Shown here: one piece after another, positions 20,645-59,860 of the stretch
Position numbering within the stretch: the stretch's first letter is position 1
How the letters are laid out: the number at the start of each line of letters is the position of its first letter
Assembly (NCBI GenBank): GCA_963662445.1
Contig: OY759590.1
Location: 1,388,449-1,452,448, forward strand
DNA from: Desulfarculia bacterium
Lineage (GTDB): Bacteria > Desulfobacterota > Desulfarculia > Adiutricales > JAGVGV01
DNA length: 64,000 nt
Direction of reading: 5' to 3'
The notes under the pieces: model-generated
The model's input: only the letters and a program-made list of their open reading frames with translations
Told to the model about the DNA's origin: nothing
Databases searched by the model: none
Made by a program: the position numbers and the translations under genes

Positions 20645-20689
20645 TGATGTTTTCCAGCGTCCATTCCCTCTCTGCCCGGAGGGGGGATA

Positions 20690-21017
20690 CAGGCTGTTGA
20701 CAAACCTCTTTGTCTTTTTGATGGGTTTTATCGCTCTGAGTTACACCCGCAAAGCCGATTTCACCGGCTTACCAGTTCTTAGGCGAACATGGACGTTCGC
20801 CCCCCCCGTCGAAGGGCATGGATGCCCGTTCGACGGGTTAAACAGGCCGGGGGTTCCAAGGGGACACGGCCGCTTGGGCGTCCCCTTGGTCTGGGCGGGA
20901 AAGACTATCCGAAGTCTTCGCCATTCGCGGCAGGGGCGAAGCGCCCCGCCTGAACTGTCATCCTCAGAGCCATCTTCATCTTTCAACGGTCTTGGAAGAG
21001 ACTTTGTTGACAGACTC
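20690..21017 (+). mobile_element. MITE copy 1 (IS1182-like ends), flanked by a ~27-bp hairpin direct repeat
   Basis: Left end CAGGCTGTTGACAAA; DR ATTCCCTCTCTGCCCGGAGGGGG(G/A)ATA at 20663-20689 and 21019-21045; homologous to three other copies. Confidence 0.85.
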
Positions 21018-21052
21018 TATTCCCTCTCTGCCCGGAGGGGGAATAATTTTGC

Positions 21053-21081
21053 TTGCATAGAGAACATTTGTTTTCTATAAT
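21053..21081 (+). promoter_or_regulatory. sigma70 promoter of lexA with an overlapping GAAC-N4-GTTT candidate SOS box
   Basis: TTGCAT-17-TATAAT; AGAACATTTGTTTT at 21061-21074 lies in the spacer. Confidence 0.7.
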
Positions 21082-21087
21082 CAAGGC

Positions 21088-21702
21088 ATGGTCGTCACGG
21101 AAAGACAACAGGCAATCTTCGACTTCATCCGGAAATTCCAGGCCCGTGAAGGATTCGGCCCGACCGTGCGCGAAATCTGCCAGGCCATGGGACTGGCTTC
21201 CCCCGGCAGCCTGCTCAAGCATCTGCGGGCTCTGGAGGCTGAAGGACGCTTGACGCGGACGCCGGGCAAGAAACGGACCTGGCAGGCCGCCGGCCGACAG
21301 GCCGGGCGCTTTATCCCCCTGCTGGGGCAGATCGCCGCAGGCACGCCCATCCTGGCCGAGGCAAATCTGGAAGGCGAACTGCCGGTGGATCCCGGCCTTT
21401 TCGGCTGCGACGCTTCCTTCGCCCTGAGAGTCAGGGGCGATTCCATGATCGACGCTCATATCCGCGACGGCGACCTGGCGGTCATCAGGCCTCAGGAAGA
21501 GGCCGAGGACGGGCAGGTGGTGGCGGTGCAGGTGGAGGGACTGGAGCCGGAAGCTACCTTGAAAGTGCTCCGGCGGCGGGAAGAACGGATAGAACTGCAC
21601 GCGGCCAATCCCCGGTACGGGCCTTTGATCTTCGAAGGGGCGGAGCGGGCCAGGGTCAGAATACTGGGTCGTCTGGCGGGGGTCATCCGGCCCCGGCCCT
21701 GA
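21088..21702 (+). CDS. lexA: LexA repressor
   Basis: PTVREI wHTH, Ala-Gly cleavage site IAAGTP, GDSM serine, ATLK lysine. Confidence 0.95.
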   Translation: MVVTERQQAIFDFIRKFQAREGFGPTVREICQAMGLASPGSLLKHLRALEAEGRLTRTPGKKRTWQAAGRQAGRFIPLLGQIAAGTPILAEANLEGELPVDPGLFGCDASFALRVRGDSMIDAHIRDGDLAVIRPQEEAEDGQVVAVQVEGLEPEATLKVLRRREERIELHAANPRYGPLIFEGAERARVRILGRLAGVIRPRP

Positions 21703-21752
21703 ATCTTCCACCAAGATCGGGAAGGTGTGAAAGGCCAGCCTCTTTTTTGGGC

Positions 21753-21782
21753 TTGACTTAAGTGTTTACATGCTATACACTT
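21753..21782 (+). promoter_or_regulatory. MarR gene promoter with palindromic operator
   Basis: TTGACT-17-TACACT; AAGTGT-N11-ACACTT at 21760-21782; related site at 22260-22282. Confidence 0.6.
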
Positions 21783-21787
21783 CGCTT

Positions 21788-22246
21788 ATGTCCAAGCAAG
21801 AAATACAGCCGTTCGCCATCCTCGGCCGTTTCGTCCATCTGGTCAAGATGTGGCAACGGATAGAAAAACAGCCGCGCTTCTTCGGCCTGGACGAGCCCCT
21901 CCACAGTTCCGAGATACACATGATAGAAGTGATCGGGGAACAAAGGGACCTCAGCGTCTCCGATTTGGCCAGGCAGTTGGGCATAACCAAGGGCGCTGTG
22001 TCTCAAACAATTAAAAAGATAGAAAAAAAAGGAATGATAGTCAAAGATGCCGACCCGGACAATGCTTCCAGGGCACTGGTCAGCCTGACCGCCAAGGGCA
22101 AGCTGGCCTATTATGCCCATGCCCACTGGCATGAAAAGATGGATGGCGGCTTCCGGGATTATTTTACCAGCCTGCCGCAGGACAAGCTGGCTTTTCTGGA
22201 TGAATTTCTGACCCAGGTGGAGAAGTTTTTTCAGAAGAGGATCTAG
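21788..22246 (+). CDS. MarR family transcriptional regulator
   Basis: SEIHMI...VSDLARQLGITKGAVSQTIKKIEKKG...LTAKG. Confidence 0.9.
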   Translation: MSKQEIQPFAILGRFVHLVKMWQRIEKQPRFFGLDEPLHSSEIHMIEVIGEQRDLSVSDLARQLGITKGAVSQTIKKIEKKGMIVKDADPDNASRALVSLTAKGKLAYYAHAHWHEKMDGGFRDYFTSLPQDKLAFLDEFLTQVEKFFQKRI

Positions 22247-22259
22247 TTTTTTTTCACTA

Positions 22260-22282
22260 AAGAGTTAAGTTGCTAAACACTT
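22260..22282 (+). promoter_or_regulatory. Second candidate MarR operator upstream of the methyltransferase
   Basis: AAGAGTTAAGTTGCTAAACACTT shares GCTAWACACTT with 21760-21782. Confidence 0.55.
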
Positions 22283-22301
22283 ATAGGGGAAAGGAAATAG
22301 A

Positions 22302-22859
22302 ATGATGTCCATATTCACCGGAAGCCGCATGGATCGCATGCCGGATGTAGCCTTCAGGGGCATGTCCCTGCTTTTCTGGATAAGGGACCGTTTTGTCGCC
22401 GTCAGCCGTCTCCTGGAAGAATTTGACCTCCAACCCGGCCAGACCGTCATCGACTATGGCTGCGGGCCGGGATCATACATCGCGGGGGCTTCCCGCCTGG
22501 TGGGACCGGCGGGCCGCGTCTGGGCCGTGGACATCCATGAACTGGCTGTCCAGGCCGTGGAACGCAGGATAATCAGGGAAAAACTGAACAATGTCTCGGC
22601 CTGCCTGGCTCCGGACGGCGCATGTCCCTTGCCTGCGGATACGGCCGACCGGGTTTATGCCCTGGACATGTTCCACATGGTCAGAGACACAGGAGCTTTT
22701 CTGAGAGAAATAAACCGTCTGACCAAGCCGTCCGGACTTCTCTATATCGACAACGGCCACCAGTCCCGCCGCGAGGCCCGCCGCAAGATAATGGAATCCT
22801 CCGCCTGGGAAATTGTCGAGGAATCCCCCCGGTTCATGAGGTGCCGACCGGTAAAATAG
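22302..22859 (+). CDS. Class I SAM-dependent methyltransferase
   Basis: VIDYGCGPG motif I, AVDI motif II. Confidence 0.85.
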   Translation: MMSIFTGSRMDRMPDVAFRGMSLLFWIRDRFVAVSRLLEEFDLQPGQTVIDYGCGPGSYIAGASRLVGPAGRVWAVDIHELAVQAVERRIIREKLNNVSACLAPDGACPLPADTADRVYALDMFHMVRDTGAFLREINRLTKPSGLLYIDNGHQSRREARRKIMESSAWEIVEESPRFMRCRPVK

Positions 22860-22875
22860 GAAAGGAAACAGGATG

Positions 22876-23415
22876 TTAGCTTTCGCAGAAATTTGAACAC
22901 TCGAAAACCGCGTAAGCCAGATGTATGCGGGCCGCTTTCTCCTTTTGCTTCTCCGTCAGCCGGGGAAAATCCAGTTCCCCGATCAGGCGCTCAGCCTCCG
23001 CCCTGGTGGGGATGGCTTCGAAACCGGTCCCGGCCACCCGGCCCGAGGCCGTTTCCAGAAGCTCCGCCTCCACGCCGTTGGTTACCACCGTATAAGGCGG
23101 CATGACCTCGAAAGCCAGCCGGGAAGCGGCTATGGCTTCCTGTTCCCTGGTCACCAATGATCCTCGGGCGCACTTGACGGTCAGCAGAGGCCTCCCGTCA
23201 ATAATTACCGACAGTTCCGCACGGCCCGGTTTCCTTTCATCGCCCAAGGCAACCTCAAAAAAACGGTCCACCTCTATATCGGCTGGCGCATATCCTTTTT
23301 CTTCAACAAGCAGACGTTCCAGCTTCTGGCGTATCTGCTCATCGTCGCAATCGGGCATATCCCTTCCGGTCAGATAGTCCTTGATCGTCCCGCCGGTCAG
23401 ACTGCAATAGCTCAT
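22876..23415 (-). CDS. Stand-alone type I restriction HsdR N-terminal-like domain protein
   Basis: EQIRQKLERLLVEEKGY...VVTNG pattern. Confidence 0.7.
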   Translation of the reverse strand: MSYCSLTGGTIKDYLTGRDMPDCDDEQIRQKLERLLVEEKGYAPADIEVDRFFEVALGDERKPGRAELSVIIDGRPLLTVKCARGSLVTREQEAIAASRLAFEVMPPYTVVTNGVEAELLETASGRVAGTGFEAIPTRAEAERLIGELDFPRLTEKQKEKAARIHLAYAVFECSNFCES

Positions 23416-23603
23416 GTCTTCACCACCCTTGTCTCGTGATTATAATCTATATCCCCGGCCGCCGATTTCAACCCGGAGGAGCGGCCCCGGCCTTTTCTAT
23501 GAAGTCAGGCCGCCAGGCTTGATGGGGAAGCGGCTTACCCATTGATTTTATCCCGGGAATACAGTATGTCTTAAAGCAAATTTTCGGAGCAAGGTGAGTG
23601 CAT

Positions 23604-24359
23604 ATGTCCAAAATCGGGCGAAACGACCCCTGTCCCTGCGGAAGCGGTAAAAAATTCAAAAACTGCCACATGGACCGTGAGGAAGAACTTGTAGCCAAGC
23701 GTCTGGAAGGCCTGCCCGAAGGCACGGCCGAAAAGATCTGCGGCCTGCCGGAAGTCTCCTACGGCCGGTGCCGGGAGATAATGGACCGGCTCAACCTGGC
23801 CGAACTCACCGGGACGCCTACCGGCCTGCGCTTCATCGACCTGGAAGCCTACCTTAAACTAGGCTTTGTCCCCAAGGAACCGCCCAAGAATCTGTCCGCG
23901 ATGAGCGCCGGACAGATGGTCAACCCTTTCAAAACCATTCAAGCCGACCCGGACCATATCTACCTGGCTTTGACTCCGGCGGTGAGCGACTCCACTCTGA
24001 TTCACCAGATCGCTCATGCCCTGGACTACCTGGCCGGCTCAAAAATCAACCCCGGACTGGCCGGACCGCTGAGTCTGGAGCTGGAACTGCCCTCCGAACT
24101 CATTGAACACCCAAGGGAATTCGGACGCTGGCTGGAATTCCTGCGTAACGAATTCGGTGTGGAAATGGACGCAGAAGACACCATCGTCAGTTTTCTCTAT
24201 GAAAAAGGTTACCTGATCCCCGGCGAAATCATCGCTTCCAACAAAATGGACCTGCTCGAAGGCATGGCCAAGCGGACAATTGCCTTCCTCAAGGACAGCC
24301 GGTCCGAAATAGACGCCCTCATCCGCAACCGCGTCGGATATATGGAAAATCAGGCCTGA
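23604..24359 (+). CDS. SEC-C metal-binding domain protein with an HQxxH region
   Basis: IGRNDPCPCGSGKKFKNCH; LIHQIAHALD. Confidence 0.8.
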   Translation: MSKIGRNDPCPCGSGKKFKNCHMDREEELVAKRLEGLPEGTAEKICGLPEVSYGRCREIMDRLNLAELTGTPTGLRFIDLEAYLKLGFVPKEPPKNLSAMSAGQMVNPFKTIQADPDHIYLALTPAVSDSTLIHQIAHALDYLAGSKINPGLAGPLSLELELPSELIEHPREFGRWLEFLRNEFGVEMDAEDTIVSFLYEKGYLIPGEIIASNKMDLLEGMAKRTIAFLKDSRSEIDALIRNRVGYMENQA

Positions 24360-24382
24360 ACCTCCGCCGCGAAGAATATATT

Positions 24383-24415
24383 CAGCAGTTTCCAGGAGAA
24401 ACCTGGAAACTGCTG
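24383..24415 (+). terminator. Stem-loop after the SEC-C gene
   Basis: CAGCAGTTTCCAGG-AGAAA-CCTGGAAACTGCTG, perfect 14-bp stem. Confidence 0.65.
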
Positions 24416-24468
24416 TTCATGAAAAAAGGTTCCCCGACCCGATAAATAACCGGGATAATCTCCCGGCT

Positions 24469-24780
24469 CAGACTGTTGACAACCCTCTTTGTTGTCTTTA
24501 TCAACCTGACCGGAACCCCAAAGCCGATTTTCCGGTTTCCCCATTCTTTGGCGAACATGGACGTTCGCCCCCCGGCGAAGGGCATGGATGCCCGTTCGAC
24601 GGGTTAAAAAGGCCGGGGGTTCCAAGGGGACGCGGCCGCCTGGGCGTCCCCTTGGTCTGGGCGGGAAAGACTGGCCGAAGTCATCACACGTTGCGGCAGG
24701 GGCGAAGCACCCCGCCTGTATAGTTGCTCTCGGAGCCTTCTTCTCTTTCAACGGCTTTGGGGGGCTTTGTCAACAAGCTC
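24469..24780 (+). mobile_element. MITE copy 2, flanked by a 17-bp hairpin direct repeat
   Basis: CAGACTGTTGACAA ... TTGTCAACAAGCTC; DR CCGGGATAATCTCCCGG at 24450-24466 and 24783-24799. Confidence 0.88.
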
Positions 24781-25078
24781 AGCCGGGATAATCTCCCGGT
24801 TTTCCGCGCCCATATTCTCCAGACCGTTCACATTCTCATTGTTTCCGGTCCGCAGGGACCCGGTTTTTCGGTCACCTGTCCGCCTGATTTCCCGGCGCAC
24901 CGGTGGACCGGCTGTACGGATGTCTGGTCCGCACAAAGCATTTTTTGTTTATTTTCAGTTGGATTATGCGGAGTTTGTTTATGTTGGTATATACTAGTTA
25001 CATCGTTTCCGATATGAGCCAGAAACCGGCTGGACATTTTCGGTAGTGCGGAAGTAACAAGCCAAAGGAGAAGGGGAG

Positions 25079-25309
25079 ATGAAGGAACTGCTCAAGTACG
25101 TAGCGGAGGCGCTGGTGGACCATCCTGAACAGGTATTTGTCACCGAGGTGGTTGGACAGCAATCCATTGTTCTGGAGTTGAAGGTCGCCAAGGAAGACAT
25201 GGGCAAGGTTATCGGCAAGGGAGGACAGACGGCCAACGCCATCAGGAATCTTTTGAGCGCCGCTTCCGGCAAGCAACAGAAGCGTTTTGTCTTGGAGATA
25301 CTGGACTAA
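25079..25309 (+). CDS. khpA: KH-domain RNA-binding protein KhpA
   Basis: LVDHPE...[17 protein letters not shown]; strong RBS. Confidence 0.9.
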
Positions 25310-25452
25310 AACGCAGCTTTTGTCTGCCTGAACCGGGAGGGTGCGTTCGGGAAAGGCTGCAACATTACTGAAAATAATAAACCCCGGCCAGAGTGGACGG
25401 GGTTATGAACTGCTTTGAAGGGCGGCCGGCGGCCGCCCTTGTTTTATGGATT

Positions 25453-27411
25453 TCAGTCGAGCAGAGAATTGATGAAGCAGCCGCCGCTGCTGCCGCTGGC
25501 TCCGCCGCCGGTCCGGGAGGCCGGGGCGCCGGGGTCGACGATACGTCCGTCGGCGGCCAGATCGGCGTCGCCCTTGGCGCCGTCGGTCAGATTGAGGGTG
25601 ATAGTGGTGACGCCGGGCTGCTGGTCGATCTCCGCGCCGACGCCGTCGGCCAGTCCGAAATCGTACCAGTGGTTGGCCGCGTTGTCCGGGGTGGGACCGT
25701 ATTTATAGTATTCGTTGAGGGTGACCCTGAGTTCGTGCAGGATAAGCACAACCTGGGTGGAAGCTCCGGCAGCCAGACCTTCGACGGTGAAGGCGAAACC
25801 GCCCAGGGGGCAGGAGATGCGCTCCGGCAGGTTTTCCTGGTCCGGGGCCGGGAAAAAGGAGACGCTGCTCAGAGCCGTACCGTCTTCGGAAACCAGGGTG
25901 GCCCAGCCGCCGGCGTTATCCTGGAAGGTGGCCACATTGTCCTGCTGGGAATCCGGCAGGCCGTCGTCATTGCCGTCGCCGTTGTTGGGGCCGGCGTCTT
26001 CCAGCTCGTCGCTGACGCCGTCGGTGTCGGTATCCGGGCCGAAGACGGCGGTGACGGTCTGGTCGCCGGTGATGGTGACCACGGCCGGGCCGCTGCCCAT
26101 GCCGGTTACGCCCGTCCAGCCTTCAAAGGCCGACCCGGCTTCGGGAATGGCGGTCAGGGTGACCTGTGAACCGGTGGCGAAACTATGGGAACCCTGGTCG
26201 GCGCAGTCGATGCCAACCGGGGAACTGACCACCCGCCCCGCGCCGGAGCCGGATATTTCCACGTTCAGCACGCTGGGGTAGAAGATGGCCACGCCGTTGG
26301 GGTTAAGGGCATCCGTCAGGGTGATGAGGGAAGAACTGAAATCCGCCGTGTTCAGCAGCAGAAGCTGGTTGTTGTTCACCCCTTGAGGATTGGAGGCCAG
26401 CAGTTGTGTTCCGTCCGGGGTAATGGCCAGGGTTTCGACGCCGAAAAACTGTCCGGTGGTGGCTACAGGCAGGTCGGCCACGCCCGTGCCGCCCAGGGTG
26501 ACGTCGCCGGGGCCGTTGACTTGCAGCCAGGCCATCTGATCGACCGGCACGGGGTCAGCAGAGGGATCGGCGGTGCTGGTTCTGATGTAGGCCTTGGTTC
26601 CGTCAGGGGAGAAGACCACTGTCTGGGCGTTCCCCGGCAGGCCGTCCACGCTGCCGGTCAGGGCCAGGACGCCGTTGGTCAGGGAAAAGACCTGGATATT
26701 CTTGTTAAAGGCCACGGGGACCAGGACCGTGCGCCCGTCAGGGCTGACGGCCACGTTGAGAGGGCGATTGGCAGCGGGCGGGTCGCCCGAATCGGGCAGG
26801 GCGATGGCTGTCTCACTCTCCAGGCCGGTGCGGTCGGCGTTGACCGGGCCGTAGATGACTTGCCCGCCAAAATAGTCAATAATAATGACCGTTCCGCCGT
26901 CCGGGCTGATGGCCGTGGCCGCGGCGTAGCGCTGGTCGGTGGTGACCGGATCGACGGCCAGGGTGTAAGTGGCGACCGTGTTGTCGGCCAGGTTGATGAA
27001 GTCCAGCCCGCTGCTAAAACCGCCGTCGGTGACCACGGCCCAGGAGGCGTCCGGGGCGACGGTGATATCCTCGGCAAACATGGAAATATCGATCTGGGCG
27101 GCGACTGAGGGGTTGGCCGGGTCGGTCAGATCGACCCGGAAGACCTTACTGTCGCCGAAATTGGAAACCAGGGCGTAGTTGTCGCCCCGGTTCACCACGG
27201 CCACGTCCAGCAGCTGTCCGCCGGCCGTCCCCAACTCGCCCTGGAGCAGGGGGCCGTAGACGGTGGGGGGAGTGGTCCCCAGGTCGATGGTGTACAGTTC
27301 GGCCTCCTGTTCCGCCACCACGGCCCAGGGTTCGGCCGAAACCAGGGAAGATGTCCCGAGCAGCAGGGCAACAGCCAGAGTCAGAAACAGCAATCCTTTA
27401 CAGTGTTTCAT
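25453..27411 (-). CDS. Secreted/surface protein: YncE-like beta-propeller, bacterial repeat, choice-of-anchor U-like domain, Gly-rich GGCFI C-terminal sorting tail
   Basis: Signal peptide; repeated (S/T)PDG blades; YYKYGPTPDN...TDGAKGDAD...IVDPG; ends GGGASGSSGGCFINSLLD. Confidence 0.75.
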   Translation of the reverse strand: MKHCKGLLFLTLAVALLLGTSSLVSAEPWAVVAEQEAELYTIDLGTTPPTVYGPLLQGELGTAGGQLLDVAVVNRGDNYALVSNFGDSKVFRVDLTDPANPSVAAQIDISMFAEDITVAPDASWAVVTDGGFSSGLDFINLADNTVATYTLAVDPVTTDQRYAAATAISPDGGTVIIIDYFGGQVIYGPVNADRTGLESETAIALPDSGDPPAANRPLNVAVSPDGRTVLVPVAFNKNIQVFSLTNGVLALTGSVDGLPGNAQTVVFSPDGTKAYIRTSTADPSADPVPVDQMAWLQVNGPGDVTLGGTGVADLPVATTGQFFGVETLAITPDGTQLLASNPQGVNNNQLLLLNTADFSSSLITLTDALNPNGVAIFYPSVLNVEISGSGAGRVVSSPVGIDCADQGSHSFATGSQVTLTAIPEAGSAFEGWTGVTGMGSGPAVVTITGDQTVTAVFGPDTDTDGVSDELEDAGPNNGDGNDDGLPDSQQDNVATFQDNAGGWATLVSEDGTALSSVSFFPAPDQENLPERISCPLGGFAFTVEGLAAGASTQVVLILHELRVTLNEYYKYGPTPDNAANHWYDFGLADGVGAEIDQQPGVTTITLNLTDGAKGDADLAADGRIVDPGAPASRTGGGASGSSGGCFINSLLD

Positions 27412-27709
27412 CAGTCACCTCGGTGAATGTAGGGGCTCCCCGGCTGGAGAAAACCCCGGAAAAGAGTTTTACAAGCCCGCAAAACCAGATAAGAAACAGT
27501 CAACCATCTGCAATCTGATCAATACTCCGCTGCGGCGCGGGCCGCTTTTGGTTGTTGGGGGAAAATACATTGGATAGAACAGGTTTGCCCCGGACCAGGC
27601 AGGCCGATAAACCCGTCCGGCAGGCCAACCGGCTCCTTTTTATCAGAGAATCAGGGAAAAAAGCAAGAAACATCAGCAGGCTGGTGAGCGTCGAGAATCC
27701 TGAAGGAAC

Positions 27710-29137: not shown

Positions 29138-29180
29138 ATGCCACTCTCCCCGCGCCTGTTGATTATGGACCCCGATCGAC

Positions 29181-29258
29181 TATTGTTAACAATATAGCAC
29201 AGACGACAACGTTAATGTTTGCATTAATATTATCGGTCACTGTTAATGTGATTAACAG
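29181..29258. promoter_or_regulatory. Candidate enhancer (UAS) palindromes for the sigma54 activator
   Basis: TATTGTTAACAATA (29181-29194) and CTGTTAAT-GTG-ATTAACAG (29240-29258). Confidence 0.5.
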
Positions 29259-29362
29259 TAGAGGCAACATTCACCGGACACATTATCGGCTCAAGCCTGC
29301 GGTCGAGCAGACCTGCACCCATAAAAATCAGCATGTTGGGCATTTTTTCCGCGGTGGGGCCG

Positions 29363-29379
29363 TTGGTATGCCCTTTGCT
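29363..29379 (+). promoter_or_regulatory. sigma54 -24/-12 promoter of the octaheme cytochrome operon
   Basis: TTGGTATGCCCTTTGCT (GG-N10-GC). Confidence 0.75.
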
Positions 29380-29476
29380 ACCGGTTATACTGCTTTTACA
29401 GGTCAAAGTTAGGGTTCTGTTCGTCCGGGCGGTCCGGTGATCCGTCCCGGTTATCAGTTGTGCCATGGGAGGTTGC

Positions 29477-31111: not shown

Positions 31112-31122
31112 GAGGAAGAGCC

Positions 31123-31743: not shown

Positions 31744-31784
31744 ACCGCCCTCGGCCTCCGCTGACGGCGGACCGTGAATTCCGG

Positions 31785-31812
31785 AAAACCCCGTCCCGGA
31801 GGGCGGGGTTTT
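31785..31812 (+). terminator. Rho-independent terminator
   Basis: AAAACCCCGTCC-CGGA-GGGCGGGGTTTT. Confidence 0.75.
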
Positions 31813-32693: not shown

Positions 32694-32755
32694 TGGTTGC
32701 GATGTGAAAATGACGGCGTGCGCCGCTGGCGGCGGCGCGGCCGGAATGAAACATA

Positions 32756-46146: not shown

Positions 46147-46270
46147 GGGGGCAGCGACCAACGGGAGCGCCGGGGGCAAAGCCCCCGGAAGAAGGTCCAG
46201 GCGACAGCCTGGGGTGCAGGCGGCAGCCTGGGGTGCAGGCGGCAGCCTGGGGTGAGGGGCGGATAGCCTC
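46147..46270 (+). repeat. Palindromic REP-like element with three tandem 19-bp units
   Basis: GGGGGCAGCGACCAACGGGAGCG head; (CAGGCGRCAGCCTGGGGTG)x3 at 46198-46254; homologous to 59604-59672. Confidence 0.8.
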
Positions 46271-46277
46271 GGTTCCG

Positions 46278-49283: not shown

Positions 49284-49547
49284 CCGGAAGAATGAACTCA
49301 GCAGACGATTAATCTGATTACCGGCTACCGGCGGGAAGGCCTGCAATCTTTCAGCCGGGGCCATGGCGCCTGTCATGGCTGGCCGCCCTGGCGAGACGGT
49401 TGGCAGAACAAGCCAGCCGGAGCTCTTCATCACCGTCTTTTTTTACGCCTCGTCTCATTAAGCCGCAAGCCTGCCGAACAAAACAGATTGACCTGGCGGG
49501 ACTTCCGGATTTAGATTGTGACCGCAGCGTCGTCCAAGGAGAGAACG

Positions 49548-49988: not shown

Positions 49989-50306
49989 GCTTCGCGCCTG
50001 GCCCGCTTTTCAGACTGATCGGGTGCTGAACATTGTTCGCAGCCGTGGCCGGCGATTCCGGCCTGTCCAGCTTGGCCACCCGCCATTTTTTTCCCCGAAG
50101 ATAATGAATTGAAATAATGAATACAATTCATTTTATCGGCTCGGTCAGGCCCAGTCCGGGGAAATATTCAGGCAAGCTCCCGGCAATTCTGATAAAGTTT
50201 TATTCATCCGCCGTTGATTGAGGTCTGATGCAAACAGATGCTTCGGGACGGCGGTGCAGAGACGGCAGGATTATCCGCAGAAAGGAAAAAACAGAAGAGT
50301 GCAGTC

Positions 50307-52094: not shown

Positions 52095-52141
52095 TTCCGG
52101 GACAGAGATCAAAGAAAGTGGGGCGGCTTGGCCGCCCCACA

Positions 52142-52496
52142 CAGACTGTTGACAACCCTCTTTGTTTTCTTGCTGGGTTTTATCGGTCTTATCTACACCC
52201 CCAAAGCCGATTTTCCGGGTTCCCCTTTCTTCGGCGAACACGGATGTTCGCCCCCCGTCGAAGGGCATGGATGCCCGTTCGACGGGTTAAAAAAGGCCGG
52301 GGGTTCCAAGGGGACGCGGCCGCTTGGGCGTCACCTTGGTCTGAGCGGGAAAGAATGTCCGAAGTCATAGCCCTCTGCGGCAGGGGCGAAGCACCCCGCC
52401 TGAACAATCAGGCCCGGAGCCGTCTTCTCTTTTTCTTATCTTCAACTTTCTGTCCTGCTGTTCTTTCCGGAAATGCAAATTATGTCCGACAACCTT
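52142..52496 (+). mobile_element. MITE copy 3 in a bidirectional terminator, with a 19-22 bp hairpin direct repeat
   Basis: CAGACTGTTGACAA left end; degenerate right end; DR TGGGGCGGCTTGGCCGCCC at 52119-52137 and 52497-52515. Confidence 0.85.
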
Positions 52497-52539
52497 TGGG
52501 GCGGCTTGGCCGCCCACTTCTTTCCGGTGCCTGGCGGTG

Positions 52540-53997: not shown

Positions 53998-54121
53998 GCG
54001 GATTGTCAACCTCATGTCTGATCGCGGAAACGCGGTGCTGAATACCGATATATATAAATTTTGCCACGTCGTGGCCCGATCACGAAAAATCTCACTTCCC
54101 GGCTTACCCGCTACTTCATGC

Positions 54122-54160
54122 TGCGCCATTTTACGGACTGTCATTTTACGGACTGGCGCA
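54122..54160. repeat. 14-bp tandem duplication inside an inverted repeat
   Basis: CATTTTACGGACTG at 54127 and 54142, bounded by TGCGCCA...TGGCGCA. Confidence 0.6.
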
Positions 54161-54277
54161 TGGTCTGTATTCTTAGCATAATATCATAGTTCCTTGTCCA
54201 CGGATTTGTGGCAAATGCTGATTTGTTGTGTGGCCGTATATGGCCATATATTAGAAGTTGATTCATGGAGGAAATGA

Positions 54278-54724
54278 ATGAACGGGTTGGAATCGCGCCT
54301 GTCTGACAAATCGGTCAAGCCCGATGAGCAGATTCTCAGCGGCTGGCTGGGCCAGGCTGCTCACGCTCGCTGGCGAAGTCTGCTTGAAATAATCGACTTG
54401 AAATATCCGGGTGTCTTCGCCCCCGATTGGGTTTATGGCGGCCGGAAGCACGGCTGGGGGCTGCGTTATAAAAAGTCGAAGTCCTTCTGTACCCTGATTC
54501 CTGAGCGCGGGCGGTTTTTGCTTCAGATTGTTATCGGCGGAGCGGAACGCGAAAAGGCCGAGGCTGTTCTTCCTGAATTGTTTTCCCATGTGCGCCGGGA
54601 CTACGAGACAGCGGCTGTCTACCACGACGGCAAATGGATGTTGACGGAGGTGGACAGCGAAGATGCTCTGGCGGATGTGGAACGCCTGCTGAGCATCAAG
54701 CGTAAACCTGAAAATTCGGTCTGA
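54278..54724 (+). CDS. DUF3788-like protein
   Basis: W...GWGLRYKKSKSFCTLIP...YHDGKW. Confidence 0.8.
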   Translation: MNGLESRLSDKSVKPDEQILSGWLGQAAHARWRSLLEIIDLKYPGVFAPDWVYGGRKHGWGLRYKKSKSFCTLIPERGRFLLQIVIGGAEREKAEAVLPELFSHVRRDYETAAVYHDGKWMLTEVDSEDALADVERLLSIKRKPENSV

Positions 54725-54837
54725 AAAGGTTTTGCGGGAAAGACTTCCGGAGGGATTCTTTTCAAGTCTGCGAGCCGTCCCGCCGATATAGCCGTATAAC
54801 CTGTTTTCGCCCGGAAAGGCCTCGGAAAGGACTATTC

Positions 54838-55101
54838 ATGACCGAACTAAGCCCCATCGACCGTCTCTTGCGCACAGACAATGTACTGGAATACGACGGC
54901 AACCTCCAGGCCGACGCCCGGCGGGCCGGGCGGATGTTTGAAACATTCAATAAAGTCAATGAAACCATATCCCATCCGGATCAGGCCGGTCCTTCCATGA
55001 GCGATGTTCTGAGGGAGAGTTTCGAGATCAACAAGGAAATACTGACCGAGGCCCTGAAACTGAACCCGGCCAAAGGACTGGCGGTGGATACTTACGCCTG
55101 A
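54838..55101 (+). CDS. Small hypothetical protein with a YjfB-like C-terminal KGLAVDTYA
   Basis: 87-aa ORF with AAGGA RBS. Confidence 0.6.
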   Translation: MTELSPIDRLLRTDNVLEYDGNLQADARRAGRMFETFNKVNETISHPDQAGPSMSDVLRESFEINKEILTEALKLNPAKGLAVDTYA

Positions 55102-55281
55102 GTCTGCCGGCCTCCCTGGTTGCTCTTCTTTTTTGTTTTCATTGTCTGCTCCCAGATAAGCCCGCCGGGATCTTCCTTGCCGCTCTCCGGAAAAATTTCC
55201 TCCGGCTCTGCATCTGTTGCTGGAGTAAATTTTTACCCCGGCAAAGAGAGCTGGTATTCATAAAACCCTGAACTGTTTATG

Positions 55282-55313
55282 AAAAAGCCCGGCCGGGAAT
55301 TCCGGCCGGGCCT
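55282..55313. terminator. Terminator hairpin downstream of oadB
   Basis: AAAAAGCCCGGCCGG-GAATT-CCGGCCGGGCCTT. Confidence 0.65.
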
Positions 55314-55338
55314 TGTTATGGCGTGTACGGGAGAGACG

Positions 55339-56478
55339 TCAGATAATGGCCATGGCCTGAAGGACCGAGAGCATGATGGAGGCGGCCATGACCGAGCCAA
55401 TCTGGCCCGAGGTATTGGCAGCCATGGCGTGCATGAGCAGGTAGCCGCGCTTGTTGGCCTTGGAGCCTTCAACCTGGACCACCCTGGCGGCCATGGGATA
55501 GGCCGAGATGCCGGCTGCGCCGATGAGAGGGTTGACCTTGCCGCCCGTGAGCAGGCACATCAGCTTGCCGAAAAGGACTCCGACCACCGTATCCAGACAG
55601 ATGGCGATGAAGCCGAGGCCCAGAACCAGCAGGGTTTTGCCGGTCAGGAAGGCCTGTCCGTCCATGGTGGCCCCGATGGTTATGCCCAGAAGCAGCGTGA
55701 CGATGTTGGTCAGTTCGTTGGCTGCGGTGTTGGTCAGTCGCTGGACCACGCCGCATTCCTTCATCAGATTACCGAACATGATCATGCCCATGAGAGGCGC
55801 GCCAAAGGGGGCGATGAGGCAGGTCAGGACGGTAACGGCGATTGGAAAGACCACCAGGGCCGTTTTGGAGACCGTGGGCTTGAGGGTCGTCATGGCAATC
55901 TTGCGCTCTTTTTCCGTGGTCAGCAGGCGCATGATCGGCGGCTGGATGAGGGGCACCAGGGCCATGTACGAGTAGGCGGCTACCGAAACCTGCCCCAGGA
56001 GATGAGGTGCGTATTTACTGGTCACGTAAATGGACGTCGGACCGTCGCAGGCTCCGATTATGCCCGTGGCCACGGCTTCCAGAGGCGTGAAGCCGATAAG
56101 CAGGGCCAGGATGAGGGTCAGAAAGATGCCGAACTGCCCGGCCGCGCCCAGAAGGAATATCTTGGGGTTTTCCAGCAGAGGCGTGAAATCGGTCATGGCT
56201 CCTATGCCGATAAAGATGAGGCAGGGGAAGACTTCGGTGATAACGCCGAAGTTGTAAAAATGTCTGAACAGGCCTTCTTCAGCCATCAGGCCGCTTAAGG
56301 GGATATTGACCAGAAGGCAACCGAAGCCGATGGGCAGCAGCAGAAGCGGTTCGAAGCCCTTTTTGACGCCAAGGTAGATAAGCACCGACCCTATGATCAT
56401 CATAATGACCGCTTGCGGGGTGAGAGCCGCGAAACCGATGACCAATCCGCCCATTCCGTTCAATACTGATTCCAGCAT
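55339..56478 (-). CDS. oadB: Na+-translocating decarboxylase beta subunit
   Basis: EPLLLLPIGFG, GAAGQFGIF, IIGACDGPT, YSYMALVP, SAYPMAAR. Confidence 0.93.
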   Translation of the reverse strand: MLESVLNGMGGLVIGFAALTPQAVIMMIIGSVLIYLGVKKGFEPLLLLPIGFGCLLVNIPLSGLMAEEGLFRHFYNFGVITEVFPCLIFIGIGAMTDFTPLLENPKIFLLGAAGQFGIFLTLILALLIGFTPLEAVATGIIGACDGPTSIYVTSKYAPHLLGQVSVAAYSYMALVPLIQPPIMRLLTTEKERKIAMTTLKPTVSKTALVVFPIAVTVLTCLIAPFGAPLMGMIMFGNLMKECGVVQRLTNTAANELTNIVTLLLGITIGATMDGQAFLTGKTLLVLGLGFIAICLDTVVGVLFGKLMCLLTGGKVNPLIGAAGISAYPMAARVVQVEGSKANKRGYLLMHAMAANTSGQIGSVMAASIMLSVLQAMAII

Positions 56479-56491
56479 GTCCGCCCCTCCT

Positions 56492-56644
56492 TTATTCCCG
56501 AACTTCCGGTGAAGTCTTGGGGGAGGCCTCGCGGGGAAAGATTCGCTTGAGAATCTGGACCATCAGGGAAAGGACATAGAGGCTGACCAGAGTGCCGCCG
56601 GTTCCGGTTATCAGCATGGTCAAGCCGAATTCCAGTTTACTCAT
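56492..56644 (-). CDS. OadG-like small membrane subunit (50 aa, absent from the ORF track)
   Basis: MSKLEFGLTMLITGTGGTLVSLYVLSLMVQILKRIFPREASPKTSPEVRE; one TM helix, GGAG RBS, directly upstream of oadB. Confidence 0.8.
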   Translation of the reverse strand: MSKLEFGLTMLITGTGGTLVSLYVLSLMVQILKRIFPREASPKTSPEVRE

Positions 56645-57104
56645 GTCTTCACTCCAGAAAAGATAAGGGTTGGTGATTGAAGGGAACCGCGGGGGCAGGG
56701 TTGCGCTTCGGACAGCAAAACAGTCGGCTGTTATAGCTCAGGTCCGGCAAGAGTCAACAACAGCCGGAGTAGACTCAATCGTCACTAAATAATTCCTGCC
56801 AGGCTATGCCGGTCCCATTGTCCAATGCTCCATGGCCACTCAGAGTCCTGTACCAAGGAAACATTATCATTCTGAAATGAAACCAGGCCTGCGTCAATGT
56901 ATTTCGGGGGCGGGAGCAAGCGAACGTCCCTTTTGGTCGGAAAAAACAGAGAAAAAGCGGCCTGCCGGATAGATGGCGAGCTAACAAAAACCCCGTCGAA
57001 AAAGACGTGGGGGCGGCACTCTGTCCGTATGAATGCGGTTTTGTGTTCTGAGATGCGGAATTAATTCAGTGTTTGGGCGGCCGGGGGACGGCCGCCCGGA
57101 AGGA

Positions 57105-58475
57105 TTATCCCAATAATCTTTTCAGCCATTTCAGGTTGTTGCCGTAAGGCGGATAGAGCAGGGACAGGTCGGGCCGGAGTCTTTTATCCAATATGCCTTT
57201 CCGGTGCGAGAAGGCCTCAAAGCCGTAATGTCCGTGGTAACAGCCCATTCCGCTGTTGCCCACTCCGCCGAAGGGTAGGTTTTTATTGACGAACTGCATC
57301 AAACCAGCGTTGACGCAGCCGCCGCCGAAGGAAATTTCGGTCATGATTCTCTCAGCCCACTTCCTGTTTCGGGAAAAGGCATACAGGGCCAGGGGCTTTT
57401 CCATGCGCTTCAGCCTGTCTATTAACTCGCCGATTGATTTGTAGGTCAGGACCGGCAGGATGGGGCCGAAGATTTCTTCCCCCATGATCGGGCTCTCCCA
57501 AGCGACATTATCCAGAATGACCGGTTCAATGTAGAGATCGTTCCGGTCATGCCGTCCGCCGCAGACGGTTTGGCCGGAATCGAGCAGGCCGGTCAGGCGG
57601 TCGAAATGACGTTCGTTGATGATGCGGGCGTAATCCGGGGAGACCTGCGGGTCTTGACCGTAGAAGCGGCGGATCGTCTGCGCCAGCTCGTCCAGCAGGA
57701 GGGCCTTACCGTCCTCCGGTACCAGCAGGTAGTCCGGAGCGACGCAAGTCTGGCCGGCGTTGAAGAACTTGGCCCAGACGATGCGCCGGGCGGTGGTTTC
57801 CATGTCTATGTCCCTGTCGACTATGCACGGGCTTTTTCCACCCAGCTCCAGGAGCACGGGGGTGAGGTGTCTGGCGGCCGCCTCCATGACTATTTTGCCG
57901 ACCTCGGGGCTGCCGGTGAAGCAGATGAAATCGAATCTCTGGCGGAGAACTTCCCGGGAACTCTCGCCTTCCCCATGCAGGGCGGTGCAGTATTCCGGCG
58001 GAAAAATGGAGCGGATGATGTCGGCTATGATCGCGGAAGTAGCCGGGGCGAAGCGGGAAGGCTTGAGAACGGCGCAGTTGCCGGCGGCCAAGGCGTGAAC
58101 CAGAGGGTGGAGGCATGTGCCGAAGGGATAATTCCAGGGCGCGATGACCAGGCAGACCCCGTACGGTTCATAGATGACCTTGCTGGCCGCCGGGGCCAGG
58201 GCCAGGGGGGTGCACAGCCGTTTGGTCCTGGACCAGCGGGGCAGGTGCTTGATCGTGTAATCTATTTCCGACAGTACGGTGGCGATGTCGCTGGCATAGG
58301 CCTCCTGGGCGGGCTTGCGCAGGTCCTGATGCAGGGCGGCCAGGATTTCTTCTGTGCGTTCCCGTATCGCCGTGCGTAATTTTTTCAGGGCCTGAAGGCG
58401 AAAATCCAGAGGCCTGCTCTGGCCGGTGATAAAGTATTCTCTCTGGTTGTCGACAATTCTTTGCAGATCGGTCAT
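57105..58475 (-). CDS. Aldehyde dehydrogenase (ALDH3-like)
   Basis: PWNYP, FTGS, LELGGKSP, NAGQTCVAPD, EEIFGP. Confidence 0.95.
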   Translation of the reverse strand: MTDLQRIVDNQREYFITGQSRPLDFRLQALKKLRTAIRERTEEILAALHQDLRKPAQEAYASDIATVLSEIDYTIKHLPRWSRTKRLCTPLALAPAASKVIYEPYGVCLVIAPWNYPFGTCLHPLVHALAAGNCAVLKPSRFAPATSAIIADIIRSIFPPEYCTALHGEGESSREVLRQRFDFICFTGSPEVGKIVMEAAARHLTPVLLELGGKSPCIVDRDIDMETTARRIVWAKFFNAGQTCVAPDYLLVPEDGKALLLDELAQTIRRFYGQDPQVSPDYARIINERHFDRLTGLLDSGQTVCGGRHDRNDLYIEPVILDNVAWESPIMGEEIFGPILPVLTYKSIGELIDRLKRMEKPLALYAFSRNRKWAERIMTEISFGGGCVNAGLMQFVNKNLPFGGVGNSGMGCYHGHYGFEAFSHRKGILDKRLRPDLSLLYPPYGNNLKWLKRLLG

Positions 58476-58705
58476 TGGTCATCTCCCGTAGGCAGTAAAT
58501 GAGAAGCAGAAAAATAATCCGTGCCCAGGCCGCCGGGCGCTCCCTGGCGAGGTTTTTCCGGCATAAAATCAGGGCGGCGGCCAGGGCCATTTTCTATCGG
58601 ACGGTCCGGGGTGCGGCGCATGAGCACGTTCGCCCGGAAGGCCGGTTTGACTGTTGGCGTCCATGGTGTTTTTATTTTGTGCCGGGCTTTGGTTTTAGTT
58701 TCCAT
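58472..58705 (-). CDS. Uncertain 77-aa ORF (or long leader) between MarR and ALDH
   Basis: ATGA overlap with the ALDH start; no family recognised. Confidence 0.3.
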   Translation of the reverse strand: METKTKARHKIKTPWTPTVKPAFRANVLMRRTPDRPIENGPGRRPDFMPEKPRQGAPGGLGTDYFSASHLLPTGDDQ

Positions 58706-58709
58706 GTAA

Positions 58710-58729
58710 TTAGTTAAATGAATAAACTA
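58710..58729. promoter_or_regulatory. Candidate MarR operator upstream of the ALDH unit
   Basis: TAGTT-N9-AACTA; same motif at 59188-59206. Confidence 0.65.
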
Positions 58730-58750
58730 TATTGGCAAAAAAAATTTAAT

Positions 58751-59173
58751 TTACAGTTTAAGTTTGTCCAGCAACTCGACCAGGTTTTCAAATTCAAGGC
58801 CGTCAAGGCTTCGGCGTATGCGCTGGACAAACCCGATATTGGCGTTCCGGTAGACGCCGGCTATCTTGGCCCCTTTTTCGGTCAGGCCGATAAAATGGAC
58901 CCGGCGGTCGTCCGGGGACTGTTCCTTGTATGCGCAGCCTTCCTTGATCATCCGCTTGACCATGGCGGTGATGGCCGGCTTGGTCAGGCCCAGGCGTTCG
59001 GCCAGTTCAGTGGAAGACAAGGTGCCGGTTTCCCCTATGACGTTGAGGTAATAGAAATACCTGATCGGCAGATCGCCTCCGTCGATATGCTGAAGGGCCT
59101 TGACCTTCTCCGCGGTAATGGCGTTCTCGATTTTTTCGAGCAGCACCATGAGTTTTTTTTCGAGGTGACACAT
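58751..59173 (-). CDS. MarR family transcriptional regulator
   Basis: ELAERLGLTKPAITAMVKRM...DDRR...LTEKG. Confidence 0.9.
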   Translation of the reverse strand: MCHLEKKLMVLLEKIENAITAEKVKALQHIDGGDLPIRYFYYLNVIGETGTLSSTELAERLGLTKPAITAMVKRMIKEGCAYKEQSPDDRRVHFIGLTEKGAKIAGVYRNANIGFVQRIRRSLDGLEFENLVELLDKLKL

Positions 59174-59186
59174 GAGCGGCCTCAAG

Positions 59187-59207
59187 TTAGTTCATTAAAT
59201 TAACTAA
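59187..59207. promoter_or_regulatory. Candidate autoregulatory MarR operator
   Basis: TTAGTT-N9-AACTAA just upstream of marR; TTGACA on the minus strand at 59227-59232. Confidence 0.65.
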
Positions 59208-59345
59208 TATCCCCGGAAAGCGTTTTTGTCAAGAGTCTATCCCGGCGAAATCGGGGGGCAGTTGCAAAAAGAACAACGCCGCCCAAGAAAACGGCATTCT
59301 GTTGTCAACCGTAGGTGGAGAGAAACGGGCTTGGGGATGTATGGT

Positions 59346-59752
59346 GAGACTGTTGACAAACCCCTTTGTTGTCTTTATCAAGCTGACCTGCACCCCAAAA
59401 CGCTGTTTTTCCGGTTTCCCCTTTCTTCGGCGAACATGGATGTTCGCCCCCGGCGAAGGGCACGGATGCCCGTTCGACGGGTTAAAATAGGCCGGGGGTT
59501 CCAAGGGGACGCGGCCGCTTGGGCGTCCCCTTGGTCTGGCAGGCTTTCGCCTGCACCCGGCTCCGGAGGCTGACGCCTCCGGTATTATATTGCGGCTATA
59601 CGCGGGGGCAGCGACCAGCGGGAGCGCTGGGGGCGGCCAGCCCCCAGAGTTGGTCCAGGCGACAGCCTGGGGCGAAGCACCCCGCCTGCATAGTTGCTTT
59701 CGGAGCCTTCTTCTCTTTCAACGGCCTTTGAGGGGACTTTGTCAACAAGCTG
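59346..59752 (+). mobile_element. MITE copy 4 (composite; carries the second repeat family; no direct repeat)
   Basis: GAGACTGTTGACAAA ... TTTGTCAACAAGCTG; abuts hairpin CTGAAGGGAGGC-CGTA-GCCTCCCTTCAG on the right side only. Confidence 0.85.
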
Positions 59753-59860
59753 AAGGGAGGCCGTAGCCTCCCTTCAGTGCGGCCGACAGGTTCAGCTTCA
59801 ACTTCACCGTACCGCTTTCCATTTCGACCGCTGGTGAATCAAGATCCCTGAACCGTGCGC

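Follow-up and report, generated by a model that had tools for sequence, protein, structure and literature searches.

Why does one stretch of a bacterial chromosome hold the same non-coding repeat at four places, each time placed against a small hairpin, and by what means did the repeat arrive there? The window, i.e., the whole stretch of 64,000 nucleotides analysed from the genome of a Desulfarculia bacterium, contains four homologous repeats (c1 to c4), all on the + strand and about 329, 312, 355, and 407 bp in length. They are a gene-less miniature transposon (MITE) derived from the IS1182 family, landing on terminator-like hairpins. The best explanation, to which we give a probability of roughly 85%, is an IS1182-type MITE that duplicates its whole target hairpin and is moved in trans. 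A preliminary description made from the letters of the window had placed the four copies, the inverted ends, and the hairpin repeats that flank them, and all of these were found again at the same positions. The features are as follows.

20663..20689, no strand: left hairpin copy of c1 (target-site duplication), 27 bp with 1 mismatch against 21019-21045, fold of -15.6 kcal/mol
20690..21018, + strand: MITE copy c1, about 329 bp, with a variant right end (alignment, profile match)
20782-20952, + strand: cargo module in c1 (covariance model R1)
21019..21045, no strand: right hairpin copy of c1, retaining its T-rich tail (repeat and fold); 21018-21045 is terminator-like by consensus scan
24450..24466, no strand: left hairpin copy of c2, 17 bp exact, or 21 bp with 2 mismatches, fold of -9.3 kcal/mol
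24469..24780, + strand: MITE copy c2, 312 bp (alignment, profile match)
24550..24718, + strand: structured cargo module in c2 (covariance model R1)
24783..24799, no strand: right hairpin copy of c2 (direct repeat, fold)
46147..46214, + strand: 68-bp fragment matching the MITE family (genome 1434595-1434662)
52119..52137, no strand: left hairpin copy of c3, between convergent genes, 19 bp exact, or about 21-22 bp with one indel, fold of -13.7 kcal/mol
52142..52496, + strand: MITE copy c3, 355 bp, with an alternative right arm (alignment, family listing)
52233-52402, + strand: cargo module in c3 (covariance model R1)
52497..52515, no strand: right hairpin copy of c3 (direct repeat, fold)
59346..59752, + strand: MITE copy c4, of the 407-bp class, enlarged by about 92 bases that derive from a second repeat family
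from 59429, + strand: cargo module in c4, interrupted (covariance model R1)
59753..59774, no strand: hairpin abutting the right end of c4, with no left counterpart (repeat score 6)

The four copies align end to end, with a mean column identity of 66% when the unrelated flanks are included. Left ends of the window copies read (C/G)AG(A/G)CTGTTGACAA. In c2 and c4 the right end is TTTGTCAACAAGCT, while c1 and c3 carry variant right ends; the alternative right arm of c3 recurs at genome positions 3428255 and 3613179. The terminal inverted repeats (TIRs) are thus short and imperfect and can be written as 5'-CAGACTGTTGACAAA ... TTTGTCAACAAGCT(C/G)-3'. When the left end CAGACTGTTGACAAA is set against the reverse complement of the right end, GAGCTTGTTGACAAA, the repeat is imperfect at positions 1, 4, and 5, and the final base is C in most copies where a perfect inverted repeat would require G. 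A perfect -35-like hexamer is seen at the tip, in the left arm. A promoter within this arm was considered and dropped, since the consensus scan called none, and the same scan called no inward promoter in the MITE arms.

The elements belong to a large family, as the preliminary description had expected from the density in the window: a profile search (nhmmer) gave 112 matches genome-wide, 48 of them full-length copies of 311-443 bp, and the family occupies 29,108 bases, 0.60% of the 4.83-Mb genome. The commonest size class is 312 bp, represented by c2, and a class of 400-412 bp accounts for 15 of the 48. Each of the 48 lies outside the rough gene calls, although ORFs of 80-180 aa overlap copies, and no transposase was found inside MITE copies by whole-genome six-frame searches with PF13751, PF05598, and NF033551. 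A length below about 600 bp, many copies, TIRs, no internal transposase, and a target-site duplication together place the family in the MITE class. Copies are about 89% alike and no two are identical; the family is old and has probably lost its mobility here.

A direct repeat scoring at least 12 flanks 28 of the 48 full copies, compared with 1 of 223 control pairings, in which the left flank of one copy was paired with the right flank of another, and the pattern at c1-c3 is therefore beyond chance. The 28 repeats measure 13-43 bp (median 22.5), 24 of them contain a stem of at least 5 bp, and in 23 of these 24 hairpins at most 2 nt are left unpaired at either end of the repeat. Stems are short and GC-rich (6-11 bp), and a T-rich tail or an A-rich lead is present in 22 of the 28. 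From copy to copy the duplicated hairpins are wholly different in sequence, but within a copy the two flanks agree. The reading of the preliminary description, that structure rather than sequence is the target, agrees with these unrelated hairpins whose feet coincide with the repeat ends. Its account of the window copies was also borne out, because the unrelated repeats flanking c1, c2, and c3 all fold, c4 has a hairpin on the right side only and no repeat, and the hairpin repeats that it proposed to look for at other copies are present genome-wide.

Twenty of the 48 full copies, c4 among them, have no clear flanking repeat, and several shortened copies retain a hairpin at the left end only. 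Decay or rearrangement fits the missing repeats; alternatively, insertion may have occurred at these sites without duplication. One might suppose from the one-sided hairpins of c4 and the truncated copies that the flanking hairpins belong to the element itself or arise by local recombination and are not duplications of the target. This is hardly credible, the least probable of the readings considered here: hairpins are unrelated between copies and match within a copy, sites without an insertion hold exactly one copy of the same hairpin (see below), and the pattern recurs, around yet different hairpins, in full-length IS1182 relatives from other genera.

The sites themselves are gene ends. All 48 full copies are intergenic, with at least one gene 3' end adjoining in 44, and by the rough gene calls each window copy adjoins at least one; the left hairpin of c1, for example, starts 19 nt past the end of the + strand ORF 19937-20644. 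Fifteen of the 48 lie between convergent genes, compared with 369 of 2582 spacers that are convergent genome-wide. The preliminary description held that each flank keeps a terminator. This stands only in part: the distal hairpin copy of c1 is terminator-like by the scan, but only the distal copy was so called, and the gene-proximal copy is left without its T-tract unless this lies within the repeat.

Empty sites could be observed within the genome. At genome position 3282410, a MITE sits in a member of a second repeat family, of which 44 uninterrupted copies span the site; a single 22-bp hairpin is present in each of the four uninterrupted copies displayed, whereas at the filled site it stands on each side of the MITE. 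The same pattern of one versus two hairpins is found at 4291721 against 5 paralogues. The comparison of empty with filled sites, suggested in the preliminary description as a check in related genomes, came out within this genome as it foresaw. Contigs of two related strains lack c1 and one hairpin copy (joint 20654 to 21011), and since the last 8 nt of c1 remain in this allele, it more likely represents a secondary loss than a never-occupied site, as judged from the joint. Both c2 junctions are covered in related strains X3 and X4. Other joints among the related-strain contigs (20710 to 24517, etc., with letters between) were rejected as rearrangements and assigned to cross-mapping of family copies. 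X5 and the runs of small share were left out of any claim on strain or habitat.

The assignment to IS1182, which the preliminary description had already suggested, is upheld by the tips. The terminal 14-17 nt of the MITE are the tips of elements that encode an IS1182 transposase, whole or as a remnant, and comparison of 15 termini gave nine invariant positions and one nearly invariant position among the first 14. In Dethiosulfatarculus sandiegensis, a deleted IS1182 element of 1029 bp shares its terminal 14 nt with the MITE; its three ORF pieces match NF033551 at 24-65, 67-165, and 391-484 of 488, and also match DUF772 and DDE_Tnp_1_6. A second copy of this element is flanked by a duplicated terminator hairpin of 22 bp. 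A search within the class with a 120-aa piece as query found only weak relatives, at 27-49% identity. Full-length relatives of 1.6 kb with the same tips occur in Marinobacter sp. S6332, M. litoralis, Rhodospirillales MAGs, and Azospirillum. One of them (Marinobacter) has a gene for a 502-aa protein, whose score on NF033551 is 477 bits (cut-off 270), and the full-length relatives carry whole-hairpin duplications of 21-24 bp.

No such partner resides in the genome that carries the MITE. Six-frame searches with the same three models found no IS1182 transposase in it, the one weak match being an IS5 remnant. Inverted pairs of the 10-nt tip core spaced 600-4000 bp apart numbered 34, none of which encloses a transposase with proper ends, and there is no autonomous copy with the exact MITE tips in this genome. 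The family is therefore an orphan here, and as neither the element nor the genome has an IS1182 transposase, it is a derivative of the IS1182 family and not itself an IS. The view of the preliminary description that the element is non-autonomous thus holds for the entire genome. Furthermore, a DNA search of 40 related genomes, the nearest of which are other genera, did not find the MITE and gave three matches of about 45 nt only (E of 4.7e-4 or weaker), and a plasmid collection gave no match. The proposed mobilisation in trans draws on the similarity of the tips to elements of other taxa.

Could another resident transposase have moved the MITE, with the likeness to IS1182 tips being coincidental? 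Self-comparison for repeats of at least 500 bp disclosed, besides paralogous genes, an IS256-family element in two copies, and the IS5-family remnant is also present. This reading is very improbable. The inverted repeats of the IS256 element are unrelated and its duplications measure 8 bp, and the IS5 piece is a C-terminal half only (positions 113-257 of 258) with no MITE tips nearby. In addition, the tips agree with IS1182 elements that were delimited independently, and those elements show the same hairpin duplications.

In the preferred reading of an IS1182-type MITE, a DDE transposase of this type, since lost from the genome, would have moved the copies in trans. Its target would be a DNA hairpin or palindrome and not a sequence, in most cases the GC-rich stem of an intrinsic terminator downstream of a gene. 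The enzyme may attack a cruciform, once extruded, at its 5' feet, and filling of the two single-stranded gaps would then copy the entire hairpin, so that the duplication would be as long as the hairpin (13-43 bp). The cost to the host is probably low. Short GC-rich stems of 6-11 bp extrude as cruciforms with difficulty, whereas single strands fold readily. The same MITE may thus have recognised a hairpin in single-stranded DNA, on the lagging-strand template at a fork or during transcription; the flanking repeats, the empty sites, and the stem data fit either target alike. We regard this variant as unlikely. Orientation is unbiased with respect to replichore (16 plus/12 minus versus 10 plus/10 minus, p = 0.77; the comparison has low power) and to the adjoining gene (15 of >M> versus 14 of <M<), which is a weak point against it. 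Another weak point is that a two-sided duplication needs joining on both strands, for which a two-fold symmetric cruciform is the simplest substrate in the model drawn in PMC5678879.

The cargo between the ends is the less expected part, and of all the pieces only this one could open new ground. About 170 nt long, it is a structured module comprising three conserved hairpins and a closing helix, and covariance model R1 scores the window modules at 197-204 bits. The same model found 24 copies in a genome of another genus of the same family, and IS1182 tips are absent within 200 nt of the five that were inspected. In an alignment that had been fitted to model R1, both partners vary in 26 of the 44 pairs and pairing holds in 96.9% of cells, compared with 3-8 pairs and 39-55% in slid controls. 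No Rfam family matched at its gathering score anywhere in the window, the best sub-threshold match reaching 13 bits against gathering scores of 36-50, and the three-block module pattern, in that exact form, had 0 matches in metagenome contigs. Identification of the cargo as a REPIN/RAYT, an IS200-IS605 derivative, an IS110 bridge RNA, or a TnpB guide RNA was rejected because there is no resident enzyme: the genome has no match to PF01797 (Y1 transposase), PF01548 (IS110 DEDD transposase), or PF07282 (TnpB).

Tentatively, then, and at some risk of error, the cargo may be an undescribed structured nucleic-acid module, whose structure is kept across two genera and whose sequence hardly is, multi-copy in both, and captured here between IS1182 ends and multiplied to about 50 or more positions downstream of genes. 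A related possibility, doubtful but slightly more probable than a single-stranded target, is that the module is the primary entity with its own function or means of spread, and that the IS1182 ends are secondary and amplified it here. Eleven of 69 module-containing matches lack both transposon arms, some of them in tandem, and the tip-free copies in the other genus and the strong covariation point the same way. However, such a view adds to the MITE reading of the 48 copies with ends and duplications and does not contradict it, and the arms without an inward promoter, the lack of an Rfam family, the empty metagenome scan, and pair counts taken from an alignment fitted to the model all weigh against it. 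If the module is a functional RNA (a 3'-UTR stabiliser, a processing site, or a protein-binding element) or a self-spreading DNA, the transposon would be its vehicle to dozens of transcription units.

As a whole, the MITE family offers a clean, high-copy natural record of structure-directed transposition, with 28 sequence-unrelated targets available for defining what the transposase reads. It indicates that terminators can absorb insertions with little damage, and it explains for annotation the paired "double terminators" lying 300-400 bp apart in this lineage. The nearest known systems are the IS1182 elements with tips CAGAYTGCTGACAAA...TTTGTCAGCAATCTG, which share with the MITE the terminal 14-17 nt, insertion directly against hairpins, and whole-hairpin duplication; a named IS having precisely such tips may already be listed in ISfinder or TnPedia. 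They are about 1.6 kb long and encode a 502-aa transposase, whereas the MITE has 311-443 bp and none; the subterminal hairpin of the IS left end is absent from the MITE, which instead carries the unrelated structured module.

Hairpin targeting by IS1182 members is already published, so that the habit is real but known for the family, and insertion at hairpins or palindromes with a duplication of variable length, the family trait as these reports describe it, is found in the MITE as well (PMC3098183, PMC4923244, PMC5678879). Two further papers, bioRxiv 10.1101/2024.06.02.596822 and PMC6053426, have no bearing on the targeting of hairpins. In Clostridium botulinum group III and C. novyi, the insertion sites of ISCbo5/ISBma2 are described, with a single exception, as gene-end hairpins, presumed terminators (PMC3098183). 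By this description ISCbo5 resembles the MITE in its use of hairpins at gene ends, but it is an autonomous IS of Firmicutes (PMC3098183). The MITEs of Methanosarcina acetivorans (160 and 169 bp, with ISMac2 as partner) are likewise non-autonomous with an IS1182-family partner, but the direct repeats given for them measure 4 and 0 bp, and the account that lists them reports no hairpin duplication (PMC3852290). In staphylococci, IS1272 and the composite TnSha1 are described as targeting terminator hairpins by structure, with no sequence consensus and in both orientations (PMC4923244, PMC5678879). According to the same accounts, the stem-loop is partly or wholly removed or replaced by IS1272 without duplication, whereas the MITE duplicates the whole stem-loop; a hairpin stands on both sides of 24 of the 48 copies, unlike the outcome of an IS1272-type replacement. 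Attack at the 5' feet of a cruciform with the entire stem-loop being duplicated appears as pathway b of a model, drawn as a possibility only (PMC5678879, Fig 13 legend). In contrast to IS1272, the MITE pattern is that of the pathway b alternative (PMC5678879): it is the target hairpin, not the enzyme, that determines how long the duplication is, in agreement with a stem-loop duplication pathway that had only been sketched for IS1182.

The preliminary description had reported four homologous non-coding elements on one strand, three of them flanked by hairpin-forming direct repeats and the fourth by a hairpin on one side, and reading, alignment and folding of the sequence bore this out. The copies of this MITE, a small transposase-less element, lie in the window as follows:

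20690–21018, + strand, MITE copy c1, read and aligned
24469–24780, + strand, MITE copy c2, read and aligned
52142–52496, + strand, MITE copy c3, read and aligned
59346–59752, + strand, MITE copy c4, read and aligned

Their left tips are (C/G)AG(A/G)CTGTTGACAA; the right tips of c2 and c4 are TTTGTCAACAAGCT followed by C or G, and the right arms of c1 and c3 are variant. The direct repeats, 27 bp around c1, 17 bp (or 21 bp with two mismatches) around c2 and 19 bp (or about 21–22 bp with an indel) around c3, are mutually unrelated in sequence and each folds into a hairpin, and c4 abuts a hairpin on its right side only. Near c2, a perfect 14-pair hairpin (24383–24415), terminator-like on the minus strand by a consensus scan, separates the c2 target hairpin from an ORF that ends at 24359, and is unused by the MITE as a target.

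The genome holding the window is a single contig of 4.83 Mb with 57.7% G+C. A profile made from the four copies has 112 matches there at E ≤1e-5, 48 of them full-length, in agreement with the high abundance expected earlier, and the family occupies 29,108 bases (0.60% of the genome). Full copies fall into classes of 310–330 bp (25/48) and 400–412 bp (15/48), the latter enlarged by about 92 bases that derive from a second repeat family, while the remaining eight have other sizes. This second family is hairpin-rich, about 90–130 bp long and present in more than 40 copies, for example at genome positions 2038033–2038143 and 1447979–1448089. It is inserted within the 406-bp MITE subfamily and is found in c4 at about 59543–59668 of the window; the reverse nesting, a MITE inside a hairpin of the second family, occurs at genome positions 3282410 and 4425534.

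Flanks were examined by the best gapless match between 45 nt on each side of every full copy, with 223 pairings of flanks from different copies as control. A score of at least 12 was reached by 28 of the 48 copies and by one control (medians, 15.5 vs 5). These 28 repeats are 13–43 bp long (median 22.5), 24 of them have a stem of at least 5 bp, and in 22 the hairpin is followed by a T-rich tail or preceded by an A-rich lead. In 23 of the 24 hairpin repeats at most 2 nt are unpaired at either end, indicating that the duplication spans the hairpin from foot to foot. Since the duplicated segment coincides with the hairpin whatever its sequence or length, both strand-transfer sites must be set by structure, which supports the earlier suggestion that structure rather than sequence is recognized. 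One copy (genome 3006115–3006810) sits inside a short tandem array of hairpin-bearing units with a period of about 66 bp, and its apparent 43-bp flanking repeat is partly this array.

By a rough codon-usage gene call made for this analysis, all 48 full copies are intergenic and at least one gene 3′ end adjoins 44 of them; convergent-gene spacers hold 15 copies (369 of 2582 spacers genome-wide) and divergent ones four (461 of 2582). Orientation is indifferent both to the neighboring gene (15 vs 14) and to the replichore (16 plus and 12 minus vs 10 plus and 10 minus, p = 0.77); that all four window copies point the same way is therefore a matter of chance.

Sites without the element were sought by reconstructing 28 putative empty sites and searching them against the same genome. 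The copy at 3282410 is nested in the second repeat family, of which 44 uninterrupted copies span the site; each of the four displayed has one 22-bp hairpin, whereas the filled site has the hairpin on both sides. The copy at 4291721 gives the same pattern against five paralogs. Furthermore, the c1 locus is polymorphic between close strains. Both c1 junctions are covered in X1, a public sequencing run resembling the source, while in two related strains about 2% diverged from the window (runs X3 and X4), both of which have c2, a contig joins 20654 to 21011, omitting 356 bp that correspond to c1 plus one hairpin copy. This short allele could be read as a site never occupied, but it retains 8 nt that match the final 8 nt of the c1 right end exactly, which argues for secondary loss; it looks like an excision footprint, most simply explained by slippage of replication between the paired hairpins. 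Under either reading of the c1 locus, one hairpin accompanies the absence of the element and two its presence.

The source of the mobilizing activity was sought genome-wide. Six-frame searches with PF13751 and PF05598 detected no IS1182-type transposase in this genome. A search with NF033551, the IS1182 transposase profile, gave a single match of 17 bits, which was rejected because the matching piece belongs to an IS5-family transposase (its C-terminal half). Transposase genes of other families in the genome are:

genome 4298283–4298945 (locus L094, 1231–1893), IS5-family transposase remnant, C-terminal half only, NF033580, 112.7 bits
genome 929117–930492 and 2189706–2191081 (loci L001, L002), IS256-family element of 1376 bp, present twice, Transposase_mut, 377 bits

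Surroundings of the IS5-family remnant are rich in paralogous repeats. The IS256-family element has ends unrelated to the MITE tips and 8-bp target duplications, with a MITE-core copy about 200 bp away from one of the two.

PF13751 was found in 58 of the 95 genomes of the class. A scan for the 12-nt tip motif (up to two mismatches) over the 30 PF13751 loci listed gave eight matches, about the chance expectation, and an inverted pair at one locus only, in Dethiosulfatarculus sandiegensis. The 1029-bp element there, for which a second, 94% identical copy gave an independent delimitation of both ends, terminates in (C)AGATTGCTGACAAACC ... GGACTTTGTCAACAGTCT, so that the reverse complement of its right end equals the MITE left end across 14 nt. 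Three ORF pieces match NF033551 at 24–65, 67–165 and 391–484 of 488 (36, 87 and 98 bits), with DUF772 and DDE_Tnp_1_6 also matched; this is an IS1182-family element with an internal deletion. A duplicated 22-bp hairpin, followed by a T-run, brackets its second copy. Relatives of its 120-aa ORF piece were found at 18 loci, in 12 of which the tip core (up to one mismatch) lies upstream of the gene by the distance expected; the tip CAGAYTG(C/T)(T/C)GACAAA is abutted by a hairpin in seven of the eight left flanks displayed, the exception, L068, having an off-position motif match. Two insertions in Marinobacter sp. S6332 have matching hairpins of 22 and 24 bp at both ends, the ends being on different scaffolds, and one element in M. 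litoralis has a 21–22 bp hairpin on both sides. One full-length relative codes for a protein of 502 aa, with a score of 477 bits against NF033551 (cut-off 270). Among 15 aligned termini, nine of the first 14 positions are invariant and one nearly so. Because tips and hairpin-duplicating behavior are shared, the MITE is, judged by these features, a member of this IS1182-family clade whose partner is missing from its own genome. The reading as a non-autonomous IS1182-type element is thereby strengthened, and a transposase between such tips was found as a remnant in D. sandiegensis and whole in a full-length relative elsewhere, with none in the genome of the window.

It had been proposed that each flank keeps a terminator and insertion is nearly harmless. 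The consensus scan finds only the distal of the two c1 hairpin copies terminator-like; the gene-side copy loses its T-tract and is followed by the element, and such copies keep A/T extensions only where the repeat includes them, as several do. Transcription would thus probably run on into the element and end at the distal copy, and the proposal of a terminator on each flank holds only in part. The cost to the host is still low, as no coding sequence is struck. Short-class copies have a mean identity of 89% (77–97%), none being identical, mismatches between the paired halves of the duplications number 17 in 637 positions (2.7%), and a clear flanking repeat is gone in 20 of the 48 full copies. 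All this marks the family as an old burst, in keeping with loss of the transposase.

The most novel thread is the structured core of about 170 nt, a cargo module composed of conserved hairpins, found at:

window 24550–24718 (in c2), 20782–20952 and 52233–52402, cargo module
genome 2194309–2194860 and 4441103–4444448 (loci L002, L008), further module sites
loci L085, L087, L089, L091 and L093 of G001, a different genus within the same family, cargo module

Among the 69 profile matches containing the module, 51 have both transposon arms, seven have one and 11 none; some armless copies form tandem 344-bp units. A covariance model made from 17 module copies matches two of the 95 class genomes, its own and that of G001, where 24 matches (E 6.7e-12 to 2.1e-6) appeared after a DNA search had shown almost nothing. 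In its own genome alone, both-sided changes occur in 4 of 44 predicted pairs and are confined to one subfamily. When 17 sequences drawn from the two genomes are compared, pairing holds in 96.9% of cells (39–55% with partners slid) and both-sided changes occur in 26 of 44 pairs (3–8 with partners slid), in an alignment fitted to the model, which favors pairing counts; the gap is hard to ascribe to fitting alone, and 0 of 500 shuffles attain the observed pairing and covariation values. Several G-U pairs on the + strand point to this as the strand that would fold. No IS1182 tips lie within 200 nt of the five G001 copies inspected, whose flanks differ from those of the MITE and are common among themselves. 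No Rfam family matches the module, no Y1, IS110 or TnpB genes were found in its own genome, and no metagenome contig matched the three-block module pattern. Near the module copies at L085, L087 and L093 there is a further short palindromic repeat of the GGTTCCCAAGCT..AGCTTGGGAACC type, suggesting several hairpin repeat families in the G001 genome.

In standard DDE chemistry, a target duplication arises when the 3′ ends of the transposon attack both target strands with a 5′ stagger. In the MITE the stagger would span the whole palindrome, each strand being joined at its own stem's 5′ foot. If the palindrome were extruded as a cruciform, the two target phosphates would be two-fold symmetric and close together, and both could be within reach of a transposase dimer whose normal stagger is short. 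We infer this cruciform step, as well as mobilization in trans. Some IS1182 members are reportedly palindrome-targeting, according to 2015 work of Siguier and colleagues to which both staphylococcal papers (PMC4923244 and PMC5678879) refer. Attack at the 5′ feet with the entire stem-loop being duplicated corresponds to pathway b of PMC5678879 (Fig 13), where it is drawn as an alternative to the documented stem-loop replacement by IS1272. Other reports state that TnSha1 and IS1272 target hairpins and partly delete them (PMC4923244), that every ISCbo5 site except one is a hairpin at the end of a gene (PMC3098183), and that Methanosarcina acetivorans has IS1182-related MITEs whose repeats are 4 bp long or absent (PMC3852290). 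In contrast to the replacement documented for IS1272 in PMC5678879, the whole hairpin is duplicated here; the element is a MITE of the IS1182 family that exhibits the known hairpin-targeting habit of this family in a duplicating form.
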